Of a stretch of DNA of 64,000 nucleotides, positions 60,052 through 63,541 are shown one piece after another (positions within the stretch are counted from its first letter, which is position 1; each line of letters starts with the position of its first letter). Origin of the DNA: a virus; the IMG/VR virus record IMGVR_UViG_3300033075_000810; one strand, given 5' to 3'. The translations under genes were made by a program, and so were the position numbers. Under the pieces are notes generated by a model. The model made no database searches, had not been told where the DNA came from, and saw only the letters and a program-made list of their open reading frames with translations.

Positions 60052-60078
60052 TAGCCCCGGTGGGAATCGAACCCACAG
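60052..60078 (-). other. isolated tRNA 3'-end fragment (T-arm plus 3' acceptor strand), possible att/recombination remnant
   Basis: CUGUGGGUUCGAUUCCCACCGGGGCUA has a canonical T-arm and 3' acceptor but no matching 5' acceptor strand nearby; abuts the 3' end of the adjacent tRNA. Confidence 0.35.
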
Positions 60079-60150
60079 TGGGCGATCAACGAGTTGCACG
60101 TTGTGTACTGGCTTATAAGACCAGCCCTCAAGCTGTCGAGGACATCGCCC
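60079..60150 (-). tRNA. tRNA-like, anticodon UAU (Ile?), non-canonical T-loop
   Basis: acceptor GGGCGAU/AUCGCCC, D-stem CCUC/GAGG, anticodon stem CUGGU/GCCAG with loop CUUAUAA, T-stem CAACG/CGUUG but T-loop UGCAACU lacks the U55-C56 signature. Confidence 0.35.
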
Positions 60151-60175
60151 ATTCGTGGTGAACTACACTTCTAAG

Positions 60176-60262
60176 TCGCTCCGAGAGGATTTGAACCTCT
60201 CCCTGACGCTCATGAAACGCCAGGCCCGCCTTGCGGTTCATCTGACCGCTTCGGGCAGAGCA
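60176..60262 (-). tRNA. atypical 87-nt tRNA-like gene (possible CAU anticodon) with an extended 5' half
   Basis: canonical T-arm AGAGG-UUCAAAU-CCUCU, 7/7 acceptor pairing UGCUCUG/CGGAGCG, candidate anticodon loop UUCAUGA; about 15 extra nt in the D region; overlaps the 3' end of CDS 60210..60458. Confidence 0.3.
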
Positions 60263-60458
60263 GTTTGATTAGAGAAGAGATGGAGCCGTCTACCTTGGCG
60301 TGGCACTCATCGCAGAAAAACCCCTCACCGAGGGCTTCCTGCCCCTCCTGGGGGTCGTAGACGAGCCTGTTCGGCTCGACCGTCAGGCCGCGACTTCTAC
60401 CGTCGAAGCCGACCACCAGCCGGTTCCTGCAACCACACTCGCAGTTGAACATCATCAT
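60210..60458 (-). CDS. zinc-ribbon protein (MMMFNCECGC...)
   Basis: high GC3 up to ...CHAKVDGSI, then the coding signal fades into the tRNA-like region; the listed upstream start overlaps tRNA-Arg(CCG), so the internal start was chosen. Confidence 0.35.
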   Translation of the reverse strand: MMMFNCECGCRNRLVVGFDGRSRGLTVEPNRLVYDPQEGQEALGEGFFCDECHAKVDGSISSLIKLLCPKRSDEPQGGPGVS

Positions 60459-60471
60459 CTCTCTCACCTCA

Positions 60472-60540
60472 GTAACCCCGAGGAGAGTCGAACTCCTCAT
60501 CCGACTTTCGGAGAGTCAGTGCCAGGGCCGCTGGCGGGGT
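60472..60540 (-). tRNA. tRNA-Arg (CCG)
   Basis: acceptor GACCCCG/CGGGGUU, anticodon stem UGACU/AGUCG with loop CUCCGAA, T-arm AGGAG-UUCGACU-CUCCU; compact D-arm. Confidence 0.5.
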
Positions 60541-60690
60541 CATTCAGGGTGCCCGGCACCGGGTGGTTTCCCGGCTCCGGTGACAGGCATCCCCTACTCA
60601 TCTTGGCAGGTTGTGGCAGATGCGATCTACCGCCTCCGAGCTTTGGTGCCCGGTATCCTCGTTAGACGAACAACCTGACTATCCTAGTGT

Positions 60691-61041
60691 ATGCTCAAGT
60701 ACATCCTCAGACTGCTGGGGTGGCTCCTGTGGGGCACCAGCAAGCCGACGTTCACCGGGAAGCGTTCCGGCAAGTGGCCGGCCCTCAGGAGGGCACACCT
60801 CGCCAGGGAGCCGCTGTGCCGCGTTTGCGGGGGCAATCAGGACTGCACCCCTCACCACATCGTGCCGGTCCACATCGACCCCGACCGCGAGCTTGACCCG
60901 AACAACCTCATCACCCTGTGCGAGGGGAAGCCGATCAACTGCCACCTGCTGTTCGGCCATCTCAAGGACTGGAAGAGCTTCAACGCCAACGTGGTCGAGG
61001 ACTGCCGCGTCTGGGCCGACAAGCTGAAAAAGCGGCCTTGA
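60691..61041 (+). CDS. HNH endonuclease
   Basis: CRVCGG...HHIVPVHIDPDRELDPNNLITLCEG...NCH. Confidence 0.65.
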   Translation: MLKYILRLLGWLLWGTSKPTFTGKRSGKWPALRRAHLAREPLCRVCGGNQDCTPHHIVPVHIDPDRELDPNNLITLCEGKPINCHLLFGHLKDWKSFNANVVEDCRVWADKLKKRP

Positions 61042-61062
61042 CCTTCCCAGCCGCCTAAGCCA

Positions 61063-61278
61063 TTGGTAGGCTTGGCGGTTATGAACAACAACCTCCTTTT
61101 CCTGGCGAGCTTGTTGGCGATGATCGGCATCGTCTACACGTTCGTCCGCGATTACGAGGAGTCGTACTGGAGACGCCAGTACAAGCGGGCCTACTGGTCG
61201 CTGGCCGTCGCCCTGGTCATGACGGCGGTCATCCTGGCCCTGATCGGGCGGTGGGCCTGGAAGAACTGCGTCTGGTAA
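61063..61278 (+). CDS. small membrane protein
   Basis: two hydrophobic helices. Confidence 0.45.
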   Translation: MVGLAVMNNNLLFLASLLAMIGIVYTFVRDYEESYWRRQYKRAYWSLAVALVMTAVILALIGRWAWKNCVW

Positions 61279-61279
61279 G

Positions 61280-61347
61280 TCACCCTGTCGAGAGTCGAAC
61301 TCGATAACCGTCTTTAGGAGAGACAGCACCTGTCCACAGGCAAGGTG
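61280..61347 (-). tRNA. tRNA-Arg (CCU), second copy
   Basis: acceptor CACCUUG/CAGGGUG, anticodon stem UGUCU/AGACG with loop CUCCUAA, T-arm UCGAG-UUCGACU-CUCGA. Confidence 0.45.
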
Positions 61348-61424
61348 GTTTGAGTCGAACATGCGACCTACAATCCAGCATGTTCAAATCAAGTTGCATC
61401 CAATGTGGGATCATGGAATAGCAG

Positions 61425-61867: not shown

Positions 61868-61873
61868 AGTCAG

Positions 61874-61944
61874 AGCCTCCTGAGGGAGTCGAACCCTCAT
61901 TTCCACATTACCAATGTGGCGTCCTACCGCTGAACGAAGGAGGC
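61874..61944 (-). tRNA. tRNA-Thr (GGU), canonical
   Basis: perfect acceptor GCCUCCU/AGGAGGC, U8, D-loop AGCGGUA, anticodon stem CCACA/UGUGG with loop UUGGUAA, T-arm GAGGG-UUCGACU-CCCUC. Confidence 0.75.
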
Positions 61945-61950
61945 TTTACG

Positions 61951-62385
61951 TCACAGGCCGGGGTCCGGCGGGAAAAGCGGTTTCGCCGGGACCGGCTTAG
62001 GCTGCTCGGGCACCTCGACCCTGACGTAGAGGAATCGGGGGTTGCCCTTGTCGTCTTTGAAGTTGAACTGCACCACGCAGGTCTGTTTCATCTGTAGGTA
62101 GACCTCGATGCCGGGATACTTGTTGGTCCACCTGCCGTTTCGGTCCTCGATGATCACCTTGGTCATGTGGACCACGTCATAGTCGTCGTTGCTCTTCAGG
62201 GGCGGCAGTTCCTGCTCGGCCACCGCCCTGACCCTGACGAGGACCATCGGGCTGCCCTTAGGCAGCTTGACCACGCTCATGTGGTCGGCCCCGGTGATCG
62301 TAACGTGCGGGATCTTGTCGTTGCCGCTACAGCCGGCCAGGGCCAGCACCATGCACACCAGGGCGGCGTAGATCAGCTTCTTCAT
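61951..62385 (-). CDS. lipoprotein (start at MKKLIYAALVCMVLALAGC)
   Basis: signal peptide with lipobox LAGC. Confidence 0.5.
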   Translation of the reverse strand: MKKLIYAALVCMVLALAGCSGNDKIPHVTITGADHMSVVKLPKGSPMVLVRVRAVAEQELPPLKSNDDYDVVHMTKVIIEDRNGRWTNKYPGIEVYLQMKQTCVVQFNFKDDKGNPRFLYVRVEVPEQPKPVPAKPLFPPDPGL

Positions 62386-62534
62386 CGGCCTCTCCTGACG
62401 CAGCGGTTGTTTCGGCCTTCGCGTCGTGTCTTCTGCCGGGCCTTCCGCCTCACCTCCCCCTCGGGTTTGTTGGGGATCTTGTCGAAGTTGCCGTCCCGGT
62501 CGTCCCAATCAGGACTCTTGATGCGGTTGTTCAT
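62382..62534 (-). CDS. small basic protein (MNNRIKSPDW...)
   Basis: ATGA overlap with the upstream stop; Arg/Lys-rich tail. Confidence 0.3.
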   Translation of the reverse strand: MNNRIKSPDWDDRDGNFDKIPNKPEGEVRRKARQKTRREGRNNRCVRRGR

Positions 62535-62788
62535 AGTTTGTCCGACGCCCGGTTGCCGCACTCCACCCAGTCGGCCACGCAGATAGCTTGGCAGCGACCG
62601 CCGTAGGTCGGCTGGACCTTCTGATAGGGGCAGGGGGCATTGCCCGGCGAGATGGTGCAGATATGCCGAACGGCTATCTCCAGTTCGGCCCTCAGCCAGA
62701 AATCGAGGTCGCGGCCCTGTGGCCTGCCGGCCTTGTTCCACAACTGATAAGCTCGTTCTCTGGTAGTCATCGGACACCTCGCTTTCAT
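62531..62788 (-). CDS. DUF2934-domain protein
   Basis: RERAYQLWNKAGRPQGRDLDFWLRAELEI. Confidence 0.5.
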   Translation of the reverse strand: MKARCPMTTRERAYQLWNKAGRPQGRDLDFWLRAELEIAVRHICTISPGNAPCPYQKVQPTYGGRCQAICVADWVECGNRASDKL

Positions 62789-62911
62789 CCTAAGCGAGTA
62801 TGCCCGAACCGGAGTCCGGCGTCAAGATCAGGGGGTGCGACGGGTAACGATCCCGTACCTTCGGATTCACAGTCCGACGTGCAGTGCCTCTACACCACGC
62901 ACCCCATCAAG

Positions 62912-62997
62912 CTCCTGCGGCTGGAATCGAACCAGCGTAGGGTTGCCCCACAAACGGTTAACAGCCGTTCAGTACTACCAACAGTACCCCCACAGGA
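62912..62997 (-). tRNA. 86-nt tRNA with long variable arm and GUU anticodon (atypical)
   Basis: acceptor UCCUGUG/CGCAGGA, D-stem GUAC/GUAC with G18G19, anticodon stem AACGG/CCGUU with loop CUGUUAA, 16-nt variable arm forming a GUGGGG-CAA-CCCUAC hairpin, T-arm GCUGG-UUCGAUU-CCAGC. Confidence 0.45.
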
Positions 62998-62998
62998 A

Positions 62999-63343
62999 TC
63001 AATCGTTATCCCAATGCCACTTCCTATGGCAGTTGGCACAGAGAATGTCACACTTCTCCATCTCCTTCATGATCCGCTCTCGGCCCCATCCCCGATGAAC
63101 CGCAGCAGATACCGTTGTCTCTTTGGTGGAGCCGTCCCGATGATGAAACTCAAGACATCCGACATGGTTCTCTGGACACATCCCACACTTGAGAACTGAT
63201 TTAACTTCATTGAGCCATTCACGAAGTTCCCGGCGGCGATCACAAACACGCTTCTTGGCCTTCGCGGCGTTCCTCTCGTACCAGGCACGTCTATAGGCTC
63301 TGAGCTTATCGACGTTATCCTTCTTCCACATCTCGGTTGCCAT
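62999..63343 (-). CDS. HNH endonuclease
   Basis: CGMCPENHVGCLEFHHRDGS...CDILCANCHRKWH; immediately upstream of a tRNA. Confidence 0.65.
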   Translation of the reverse strand: MATEMWKKDNVDKLRAYRRAWYERNAAKAKKRVCDRRRELREWLNEVKSVLKCGMCPENHVGCLEFHHRDGSTKETTVSAAVHRGWGRERIMKEMEKCDILCANCHRKWHWDND

Positions 63344-63389
63344 GAACTAAGGGAGTATCCTAACTCCACTTTGTTTTTGGAAACCGAAA

Positions 63390-63461
63390 CAGGTCCGCAG
63401 GGATTTGAACCCTGACCGCTCGTTTTGGAGACGAGAATGCAGCCGATAACACCTCGGACCT
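63390..63461 (-). tRNA. tRNA-Trp (CCA)
   Basis: perfect acceptor AGGUCCG/CGGACCU, G18G19 present, anticodon stem CUCGU/ACGAG with loop CUCCAAA, T-arm CAGGG-UUCAAAU-CCCUG. Confidence 0.65.
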
Positions 63462-63471
63462 AGTTCTTCAG

Positions 63472-63541
63472 CAGGGCATGAAGGAGTCGAACCCTCTCTT
63501 TCTGCTTTGGAGGCAGAAGCCGCACCCAGGAGGAATGCCCT
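63472..63541 (-). tRNA. tRNA with CCA anticodon (second Trp-like copy), atypical D-arm
   Basis: perfect acceptor AGGGCAU/AUGCCCU, anticodon stem UCUGC/GCAGA with loop CUCCAAA, T-stem GAGGG/CCUUC with loop UUCGACU. Confidence 0.45.

Follow-up and report, generated by a model that had tools for sequence, protein, structure and literature searches.

Compact-core arginine tRNA genes in a viral tRNA island belong to a conserved, phage-borne lineage

The DNA considered here is a stretch of 64,000 nucleotides (nt) of the IMG/VR virus record IMGVR_UViG_3300033075_000810, referred to in the following as the window, which carries a transfer RNA (tRNA) island at positions 60052-63541 and, largely within it, a set of six arginine tRNA genes with a compact body. 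All tRNA genes of the window lie on the minus strand, and the minus strand of the island holds 13 tRNA or tRNA-like genes and one tRNA fragment according to a scan for T-arm and acceptor pairing, the program ARAGORN and the covariance model R1 described below. An earlier note on this DNA had placed about eleven such genes on one strand together with two HNH endonuclease genes, a picture that holds with the larger count given here. Five of the arginine genes belong to the island, namely Arg(ACG) #1 (61797-61867), Arg(ACG) #2 (61714-61782), Arg(UCU) (61426-61493), Arg(CCU) #1 (61281-61347), and Arg(CCG) (60474-60541), while the sixth, Arg(CCU) #2, lies outside it at 46355-46422, in agreement with the second Arg(CCU) noted earlier at 46.4 kb. 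Every anticodon that had been assigned by hand folding (Arg CCG, CCU, UCU, and ACG twice, Thr GGU, and two CCA anticodons) proved to be correct.

The six arginine genes share a common plan, in which a 7-base-pair (bp) acceptor stem is followed, with no 8/9 linker, by a 4-bp D-stem that starts at nt 8 and closes a D-loop of 4-6 nt, and then by a 2-nt spacer, a 6-bp anticodon stem, an anticodon loop of the form CU-NNN-AA, and a 5-bp T-stem. The variable loop measures 3-4 nt in five of the six genes and 4-6 nt in ACG #1, depending on how the irregular T-stem of this gene is drawn. The D-stems comprise the pairings CCAG/CTGG, CCGG/CCGG, CCTG/CAGG, and CCGA/TCGG, as in the D-arms CCAG-cggtt-CTGG of ACG #1, CCAG-cggcc-CTGG of Arg(CCG), CCGG-tagt-CCGG of Arg(UCU), CCTG-tgga-CAGG of CCU #1, and CCGA-tggat-TCGG of CCU #2, the last gene being the nearest of the six to the family consensus. 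The genes depart from a canonical tRNA in lacking the U8/N9 linker and a 5-bp anticodon stem with a single nt 26, and agree with it in their 7-nt anticodon loop and U33. None of the six can be drawn in a canonical register with a U8/N9 linker, and the minimum free energy (MFE) folds of all six give the same compact cloverleaf with the D-stem at nt 8. Acceptor stems are fully paired (7/7) in all six genes and T-stems (5/5) in five. A fixed-geometry descriptor scores 22 of 22 pairs in every gene except ACG #1, against a background of about 0.5 weaker matches per 64 kb of shuffled sequence at 19 or more of 22 pairs. The geometry of ACG #1, with its longer variable region and bulged T-stem, was confirmed through alignment to R1 and not through the descriptor. 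Taken together, the descriptor, the MFE folds, and R1 bear out for all six genes the earlier description of a D-stem at nt 8 without U8/N9 and with a compact D-loop. Moreover, the copies are only 48-70% identical to one another and five of them still keep 22 of 22 pairs, and these paralogues are thus old genes with intact stems.

The compact body also occurs outside this genome. A scan of IMG/VR with a pattern of the architecture returned 42 loci, 30 of which hold full cloverleaves of the compact plan and 12 of which are chance matches, and these loci often contain two or three compact genes side by side with differing arginine anticodons. In the anticodon, the first pattern prescribed nothing but a C at the middle base and so admitted Arg, Gly, Trp, Cys, and Ser anticodons; even so, every true match carried an arginine anticodon. 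When the middle base was freed, 13 extra loci appeared, none with a cloverleaf at the match. The covariance model R1 was built from an alignment (A4) of 40 equal-length members from other contigs and includes no sequence of the window; A4 replaced MAFFT alignments of the window paralogues, in which gaps fell wrongly in the variable and T regions. R1 recovers all six window genes at 47.5-67.1 bits (ACG #1 57.3, ACG #2 55.9, UCU 47.5, CCU #1 55.0, CCG 61.5, and CCU #2 67.1 bits; E <= 6e-11 each), whereas canonical tRNAs of the window reach at most 37.4 bits, and so the alignment to covariance models that the earlier note had called for comes out in favour of the compact D-arm.

Over 47 sources, R1 yields 83 members at 42.6 bits or more, of which 81 have arginine anticodons (ACG 38, UCU 13, CCG 12, CCU 10, UCG 5, and GCG 3) and two have glutamine anticodons. 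The linker is absent in 82 of the 83 members, the D-loop is mostly YGGAN, and the anticodon loop has the form CU-NNN-AA in 78. In the alignment of all 83 members, 97.9% of the cells are paired and double-sided changes occur at 21 of the 22 pairs, with a covariation score of 0.92 versus 0.24 in shuffles and at most 0.17 with slid partners. Pairing in the D-helix is complete (100%), each of its four pairs shows compensatory changes, and the outermost (sixth) pair of the anticodon stem covaries freely (CG 32, GC 30, and UA 14). An encoded CCA end is present in 44 of 58 relatives from other contigs.

The family is associated with phages. Its loci contain 517 other tRNAs found by ARAGORN, which cover all amino acids and include only 21 other arginine tRNAs, and Arg(ACG) is represented in these arrays by 31 compact versus two non-compact genes, which indicates that the compact gene fills the Arg(ACG) slot in the arrays that carry the family. 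In 596 Gb of cellular genomes the pattern matched at least 120 loci; among the matches listed, true members occur in 11, all of them contigs of metagenome-assembled genomes (MAGs) with 7-22 tRNAs in 8 kb or less, whereas the other 109 listed loci, among them all those in isolate genomes, hold 0.24 tRNA on average and are chance matches. Cultured carriers are Rhodobacteraceae phages of about 147-150 kb, namely RcXuper, DSS3_MAL1, RpAliso, DSS3P8, vB_RpoS-V10, and MD18, of which DSS3_MAL1 alone annotates the compact gene (as tRNA-Arg); the matches in the other GenBank phage isolates carry no annotation. Thus, the six genes belong to a conserved, arginine-specific, phage-borne tRNA lineage.

Two related arrays deserve mention in their own right. 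One viral contig (L168) carries tRNAs at 8108-8174 and 8981-9047 on the plus strand that lack the linker and have 6-bp anticodon stems, a Thr(GGU) anticodon among them, with non-standard T-loops (ATCGTCA and GTAAGCA) and encoded CCA ends, so that the compact plan occasionally serves other amino acids. A second viral array (L027), which holds three compact arginine tRNAs, also includes a permuted transfer-messenger RNA (tmRNA) gene of the alpha-proteobacterial type at 1165-1377 on the plus strand (RF01849, 112 bits).

Standard finders deal poorly with these genes. Within the island, default ARAGORN reports seven genes, namely Met, Arg(ACG), Thr(GGU), His, an 87-nt 'Asn', and two Trp, together with Glu(CUC) just beyond it, while the Rfam tRNA model supports only Thr, His, and both Trp; the additional genes were found by reading the strand and by scanning for a T-arm plus acceptor pairing. 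The earlier note had allowed the failure of tRNA-finding software to count against its gene set, and in this respect ARAGORN lends it one of the six arginine genes (ACG #1) and Rfam RF00005 none at its gathering score of 29 bits, with no RF00005 match to the five island genes even at E <= 10. Relaxed ARAGORN settings retrieve further genes, such as Arg(UCU) only at -ps80 and Arg(CCG) only at -ps90, although -ps80 also adds obvious false positives inside open reading frames (ORFs), and this setting was not used as evidence. The same pattern is seen in the relatives, since in seven other loci RF00005 at gathering score recovers 84 neighbouring tRNAs but not one of the 19 family members, and default ARAGORN finds 33 of 66 compact members. 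The poor recovery is therefore a blind spot of the software and not an absence of genes, and failed recovery by standard finders is no valid refutation for the compact family.

The contact between D-loop and T-loop provides a further view on the fold. Four window genes out of six, and almost the entire family, combine GG in the D-loop with TTC in the T-loop. The D-loop GG is missing in only two of the 83 members, namely window ACG #2 (cgattt, with A at the place of G19) and window UCU (tagt), and only these two have changes at T-loop positions 55/56 (TTTGACT with U56 in ACG #2, and TGCGATC in UCU). A dedicated IMG/VR scan for the compact plan with U56 produced three true, independent viral members (L181, L191, and L192), all with the D-loop CGAAT. 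An A at the place of G19 is thus found in four of four members with U56, including ACG #2, versus none of 81 members with C56. The replacement of G19:C56 by A19:U56 indicates that the D-loop/T-loop elbow is formed and that the L-shaped fold is under selection, also in ACG #2.

As a separate observation, GG and TTC are both absent from Glu(CUC) (63801-63871), Ile(UAU) (60080-60150), Thr(UGU) (29374-29444), and a CCA tRNA-like gene (60604-60676), whose T-loops are AGCGTAA, TGCAACT, TGCAACT, and ATCGCAT, respectively, and a non-standard elbow characterizes much of the tRNA set of this phage.

A20 is the main determinant for arginyl-tRNA synthetase (ArgRS) in E. coli. The bacterial tRNAArg identity set consists of A20, C35, U or G36, and A or G73 (PMC9976931). 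All six window genes have C35, G36 or U36, and a discriminator A or G, and the base after GG is an invariant A in the 40-sequence seed (YGGAN).

By standard wobble, ACG is read as ICG after deamination by TadA and decodes CGU, CGC, and CGA, CCG decodes CGG, UCU decodes AGA (and AGG), and CCU decodes AGG. Under these rules the window genes decode all six arginine codons, and the complete isoacceptor set announced in the earlier note is borne out. Among the arginine codons of 56 confident ORFs, AGG and CGC account for 30% each, CGG for 23%, CGT for 9%, and AGA and CGA for 4% each, and the gene copies (CCU twice, ACG twice, CCG once, and UCU once) track this use (30%, 43%, 23%, and 4%, respectively). 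The G+C content of the window is 58-66% in 2-kb windows, at which a share of 30% AGG is unusual, and the heavy use of AGG is in keeping with a phage that carries tRNAArg(CCU) itself. The codon-usage compensation put forward earlier hence gains indirect support from the AGG share and from copy numbers that follow codon use. In alignments with solved homologues of two window proteins (a methionine aminopeptidase, MetAP, and an epimerase), AGG is aligned to arginine or lysine in 7 of 13 cases, CGG in 6 of 10, and CGC in 3 of 7. A reassignment of AGG was also considered and rejected, since AGG aligns with arginine or lysine as often as CGN codons do.

The remaining genes of the island are a mixture of canonical and irregular forms, all on the minus strand. 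Canonical genes are tRNA-Thr(GGU) at 61875-61944 (ARAGORN; Rfam 63.7 bits) and tRNA-Trp(CCA) at 63391-63461 (ARAGORN; Rfam 49.1 bits). The other tRNA-Trp(CCA), at 63473-63541 (ARAGORN; Rfam 33.7 bits and R1 33.3 bits), has a 6-bp anticodon stem, a 3-nt variable loop, and a weak D-arm. The tRNA-His(GUG) at 62832-62905 (ARAGORN; Rfam 54.3 bits) encodes, by direct reading of the sequence, a G-1 opposite C73. The tRNA-Ile(UAU) at 60080-60150, with 7/7 acceptor pairs in the T-arm/acceptor scan and an MFE cloverleaf (z = -3.4), was not recovered by ARAGORN or Rfam and has a 2-nt linker, a 6-bp D-stem with a 4-nt loop, a 6-bp anticodon stem, and the T-loop TGCAACT. The CCA tRNA-like gene at 60604-60676 (MFE z = -3.0; R1 22 bits) is read by ARAGORN at -ps80 with the anticodon 'ccaa' and has an anticodon loop of 8 nt (or 6 nt), the T-loop ATCGCAT, and an encoded GCCA end, and its role as a tRNA is uncertain.

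Another tRNA-like gene, with the anticodon CAU, lies at 60177-60262 and combines the compact plan with an insert in the D-loop. It was found by the T-arm/acceptor scan and gives 22 of 22 pairs in a hand fold (MFE z = -4.5; R1 23.6 bits). The D-stem, CCCG/CGGG, starts at nt 8, the 23-nt insert in the D-loop folds into a hairpin of its own, and the 1:72 pair is U1.G72, while ARAGORN reads the gene as Met in another register. Its G37 is odd for a CAU anticodon, and the 3' end of a Zn-ribbon ORF (60210-60500) overlaps with the gene. A similar insert, of 18 nt, occurs in the D-loop of a compact Arg(CCG) at 1549-1629 of a Myxococcaceae MAG contig (L140).

The tRNA fragment, at 60053-60076, consists of an orphan T-arm and 3' acceptor strand (GTGGGTTCGATTCCCAC CGGGGCT), recognized by reading the sequence, and matches in part the 3' end of the Rfam tmRNA model and positions 46-62 of R1. 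It lies 4 nt past Ile(UAU), has the same acceptor strand, CGGGGCT, as Arg(UCU), and could be what is left of a further compact arginine gene or a scar of recombination or of an attachment site.

The tRNA(GUU) with a long variable arm (62913-62997), called by ARAGORN as the 87-nt 'Asn' and supported by its MFE fold, has a 7-bp D-stem with a 4-nt loop, a 6-bp anticodon stem, and G73, and reads best as a 7/5 structure. Its shape is similar to that of tRNA-Sec (Rfam tRNA-Sec 40.3 bits, below gathering). Homologues with the GUU anticodon and a long variable arm occur in four phage arrays (L010 10734-10820, L012 6971-7054, L026 7990-8074, and L029 4422-4504), which also contain long-variable-arm tRNAs with Cys, Ile(UAU), Lys, Trp, His, and Val anticodons. 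Either AsnRS or SerRS may charge them.

Two HNH endonuclease genes lie between the tRNA genes, one at 60691-61041 on the plus strand (Pfam HNH 4.7e-5; phrog_589 1.5e-11) and one at 62999-63343 on the minus strand (phrog_3106 1.9e-21). Just outside the island, the tRNA-Glu(CUC) at 63801-63871 is found by ARAGORN only, and 13 nt upstream of it, at 63884-63911 on the same minus strand, a consensus scan gives a sigma-70-like promoter match (TTGACA-16-TAAGAT, 10/12), which is suggestive only as a possible start of the tRNA operon. Elsewhere in the window, an intergenic tRNA-like element at 23873-23946 on the minus strand (R1 20.5 bits) combines a 7-bp acceptor (GGGGCCA/TGGCTCC) and a T-arm (GCGGG-TCCGATT-CCCGC) with a long GC-rich hairpin in place of the D and anticodon arms.

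The ends of the tRNA genes show further common traits. A G1.U72 pair is present in four of the arginine genes (ACG #1, ACG #2, UCU, and CCG, in comparison with C1-G72 in CCU #1), in Glu(CUC), and in Met(CAU) at 34742-34811, which together with the U1.G72 pair of the CAU gene corroborates the irregular ends remarked on earlier; the frequency of G1.U72 amounts to 6 of 20 window tRNAs versus 4 of 77 family members elsewhere. In 17 of the 20 window tRNA genes, compact and canonical alike, the discriminator is followed by CT(G/T/C) (e.g., 61796-61794 and 46354-46352; discriminator A and trailer CTG in ACG #1), and CCA is encoded in the window only by Gly(GCC) at 40406 and by the CCA tRNA-like gene at 60676. 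The shared N73-CT trailer points to one processing route for compact and canonical genes.

The window also encodes proteins that could act on RNA ends, all on the minus strand: a Thg1-like protein (40779-41711; Pfam 4.5e-30, phrog_4717 4e-86), an RlaP 'RNA repair pathway' nucleotidyltransferase (58-1200; Pfam), and a dual-specificity (DSP/PTP) phosphatase (21823-22233). Thg1 is the tRNA-His guanylyltransferase family, with 3'-5' templated repair of tRNA 5' ends (PMC4820378). The Thg1-like gene adjoins a trio of Gly tRNA genes at 40179-40406, and the best matches of its product lie in jumbo and huge phages as well as in DSS3_MAL1 and MD18. A link between this enzyme and the G.U ends is possible. 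With regard to the bypass of PrrC- or colicin-D-like host nucleases that the earlier note had proposed, the anticodon loops are of ordinary form, and the RNA-end enzymes and the enrichment of G1.U72 are leads only.

The translational context of the window further includes a methionine aminopeptidase (20315-21079, minus strand; E 7e-73 to MetAPs in the PDB) and, directly downstream of the tRNA island, a 253-residue protein at 59057-59818 on the minus strand with a ribosomal L7/L12 C-terminal domain (PF00542, 2.7e-11) and an unknown N-terminal part of 170 residues, for which 5.8 billion proteins contain no homologue but itself. The combination of a Thg1-like protein, MetAP, an L7/L12-domain protein, and RlaP is typical of large phages that carry translation genes. 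Two other minus-strand genes fall outside this context, namely one for an 873-residue protein (15776-18397) with a major-vault-protein shoulder and repeat domains (PF11978 1.9e-25 and PF17795 8.6e-11) and no PHROG match, which is unexpected for a phage, and one for an OGFr_N-domain protein (25169-25666).

On this basis, we consider it probable that the six genes are working elongator tRNAArg isoacceptors of a compact-core, phage-borne lineage and that they most likely supply the AGG-rich codon use of the phage. We infer that they are expressed, processed, and charged, and that six arginine genes bring a selective benefit. The genes would be transcribed within the minus-strand tRNA array, RNase P would cut the 5' end, and 3' trimming at the common N73-CU(G/U) trailer would be followed by the addition of CCA. 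The ACG species would then be edited from A34 to I by host TadA, and host ArgRS would charge the tRNAs via C35, G36 or U36, A or G73, and, where present, the A20-like base, so that all six arginine codons would be decoded by the set. Scans of about 75 window ORFs with Pfam and PHROGs gave no ArgRS, TadA, RNA ligase, or CCA-adding enzyme. The lineage probably started as a compact tRNAArg(ACG) and then spread to other arginine anticodons, because changes at position 34, and from G36 to U36, keep arginine identity. The set would most likely supply the AGG-rich codon usage independently of the host pool.

Several points weigh against this interpretation. The A20-like base is kept in the window by the two CCU genes only (tggA and tggAt), while the D-loops cggtt, cgattt, tagt, and cggcc of the other four lack it, and none of the six encodes CCA. 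The T-stem of ACG #1 is irregular, with a 2-nt bulge and 4 of 5 pairs, the MFE z-scores of the arginine genes are modest (0 to -2.8), and for the G55 T-loop of the UCU gene (TGCGATC; AG with TGC) the scan found no true member elsewhere. The covariation of the family, moreover, was measured on members gathered with tools that reward pairing. Finally, the phage is a database singleton: a search of 5.8 billion proteins returned only the queried proteins themselves, blastn against GenBank phages gave only short tRNA and HNH matches, a search for related loci with the L12-domain protein found nothing, and the contig search gave nothing but one Logan contig, 100% identical and ending at window position 63873. 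As a result, there is no orthologous island from which selection on precisely these genes could be measured.

A function in anti-defence is the alternative that survives best, although we regard it as rather unlikely. According to this explanation, which is compatible with the genes also being ordinary adaptors, the compact core would escape a tRNA-targeting nuclease or modifier made by the host, or by the phage to clear host tRNA, or the genes would be uncharged decoys, and arginine decoding would survive infection. In its favour, the entire arginine box is repeated on a body unlike that of the host, whereas the tRNAs for other amino acids in these arrays remain canonical. The A20-like base is missing from four window genes, a loss conceivable in a decoy, and the neighbouring Thg1-like protein, RlaP nucleotidyltransferase, and DSP phosphatase suggest RNA-end repair; in addition, phage tRNAs can neutralize tRNA-cleaving defences (PMC10264068, PMC11464382, and PMC11555353). 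However, the CU-NNN-AA loops are unchanged, whereas the documented escapes act via changes in the anticodon loop (PMC10264068). Moreover, no defence nuclease specific for tRNAArg bodies was found in the open-access literature, and the codon-usage fit already explains the arginine set.

A more elaborate version, which we hold to be somewhat less likely still, is that of a phage-private decoding module, in which the remodelled D-arm and core would be invisible to a nuclease or modifier that recognizes the canonical tRNAArg body, be it a host defence or a phage product that clears host tRNA, and arginine decoding would persist after the destruction of host tRNAArg, in cooperation with the Thg1-like polymerase, RlaP, and the DSP phosphatase. 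The tRNA-end enzymes might then also remodel the frequent G1.U72 ends.

That the island is instead a graveyard of duplicated, HNH-shuffled, and non-functional tRNA copies that drift from the canonical form appears improbable. Elements that look damaged do occur in it, such as the orphan fragment at 60053-60076, the CCA gene with its 8-nt loop, and the bulged T-stem of ACG #1, and the loss of the GG/TTC motifs in Glu, Ile, Thr(UGU), and the same CCA gene, the frequent G.U pairs at 1:72, and the rejection of most arginine genes by standard finders would agree with decay. Nevertheless, copies that are 48-70% identical have kept every stem pair through compensatory change, the plan is conserved in 77 further members, most with encoded CCA, the A19:U56 compensation is unexpected under drift, and gene copy number follows codon use. 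Recoding, in which a synthetase other than ArgRS would charge the odd body and some arginine codons (e.g., AGG) would be translated into a different amino acid, along the lines proposed for allo-tRNAs, might draw on the unusual frequency of AGG, the known tRNAs of phages and bacteria in which an odd body carries a mismatched anticodon (PMC5389517), and the long-variable-arm tRNA(GUU) of the same island, but it is very improbable given that the family keeps C35, G or U36, A or G73, and usually A20, and that AGG falls on arginine or lysine about as often as CGG and CGC in the alignments mentioned above.

The preferred reading, that of working compact isoacceptors, can be placed beside several known architectures. 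The pyrrolysine tRNA (tRNAPyl), which folds as an L shape with a compact core and works on bacterial ribosomes, shares with the compact arginine genes the 7/5 acceptor/T branch, the 6-bp anticodon stem, a variable loop of about 3 nt, and a D-loop of 4-5 nt, and tRNAPyl of Methanomethylophilus alvus likewise has zero nt between acceptor and D stems (PMC7609411). In contrast to tRNAPyl, the phage family has arginine anticodons instead of CUA, keeps G18G19 and T54-Psi55-C56, and has two nt instead of one between D-stem and anticodon stem, and the G1:C72 pair with G73 of tRNAPyl is not conserved in it, the 1:72 pair in the window being G.U or C-G. There is no sign of common descent between the two, and the likeness is architectural only. 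The best architectural match is the mammalian mitochondrial tRNASer(UCN) of 'type I' (PMC7609411), which resembles the phage family in its short linker between acceptor and D-stem, small D-loop, 6-bp anticodon stem, 3-nt variable loop, G18G19, and T-Psi-C. However, this organellar tRNA has one linker nt, is specific for serine, and is a single gene, whereas the phage family has no linker, is specific for arginine, covers six anticodons, and resides in phage arrays. Since anticodon, identity pairs, and origin differ, the phage genes belong to neither of these families.

Other irregular tRNAs are known from phages. The allo-tRNAs of Mukai et al. 2017 and the (8/4) tRNASer and tRNAHis of alpha-proteobacterial phages are also non-canonical, located in phage tRNA clusters, and missed or mis-annotated, and some irregular tRNAs are active in E. 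coli translation (PMC5389517). The cultured hosts of these irregular tRNAs overlap with those of the compact arginine genes, which also occur in Rhodobacteraceae phages. Nevertheless, these irregular tRNAs have a changed acceptor/T branch (8/4 or 9/3) and long variable arms, whereas the compact arginine genes keep the 7/5 branch and combine a changed D-arm and core with a short variable loop, a long variable arm being present only in the separate tRNA(GUU), and the main text of PMC5389517 describes no compact tRNAArg. The phage tRNA arrays discussed for codon compensation or counter-defence are likewise clusters with homing endonucleases that supply decoding during infection (PMC10264068, PMC11464382, and PMC11555353). 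The cases described there involve canonical cloverleaves with changes in the anticodon loop, in contrast to the ordinary loop and the remodelled body of a single amino acid found here. No description of a compact phage tRNAArg was found in the open-access literature, which is not proof of novelty.

The compact family has consequences for the annotation of phage genomes as well as for the understanding of translation. Since the Rfam tRNA model misses all tested members and ARAGORN half of them, it represents an annotation blind spot, by which the tRNA repertoires of phages and the statistics on codon compensation under-count arginine. The cultured relatives in RcXuper and in DSS3P8-like phages of Rhodobacter and Ruegeria make the question of function directly testable. 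If the proposed function is true, the family would offer a compact scaffold of natural origin that a standard synthetase recognizes and would be of interest for tRNA engineering. Moreover, its arginine-only radiation, with one body over six anticodons, is a clean natural example of how identity rules constrain the evolution of anticodons. Finally, if these genes are working tRNAs, bacterial translation would routinely accept an elongator tRNA without the U8/N9 linker, an architecture documented until now in tRNAPyl and in mitochondria.

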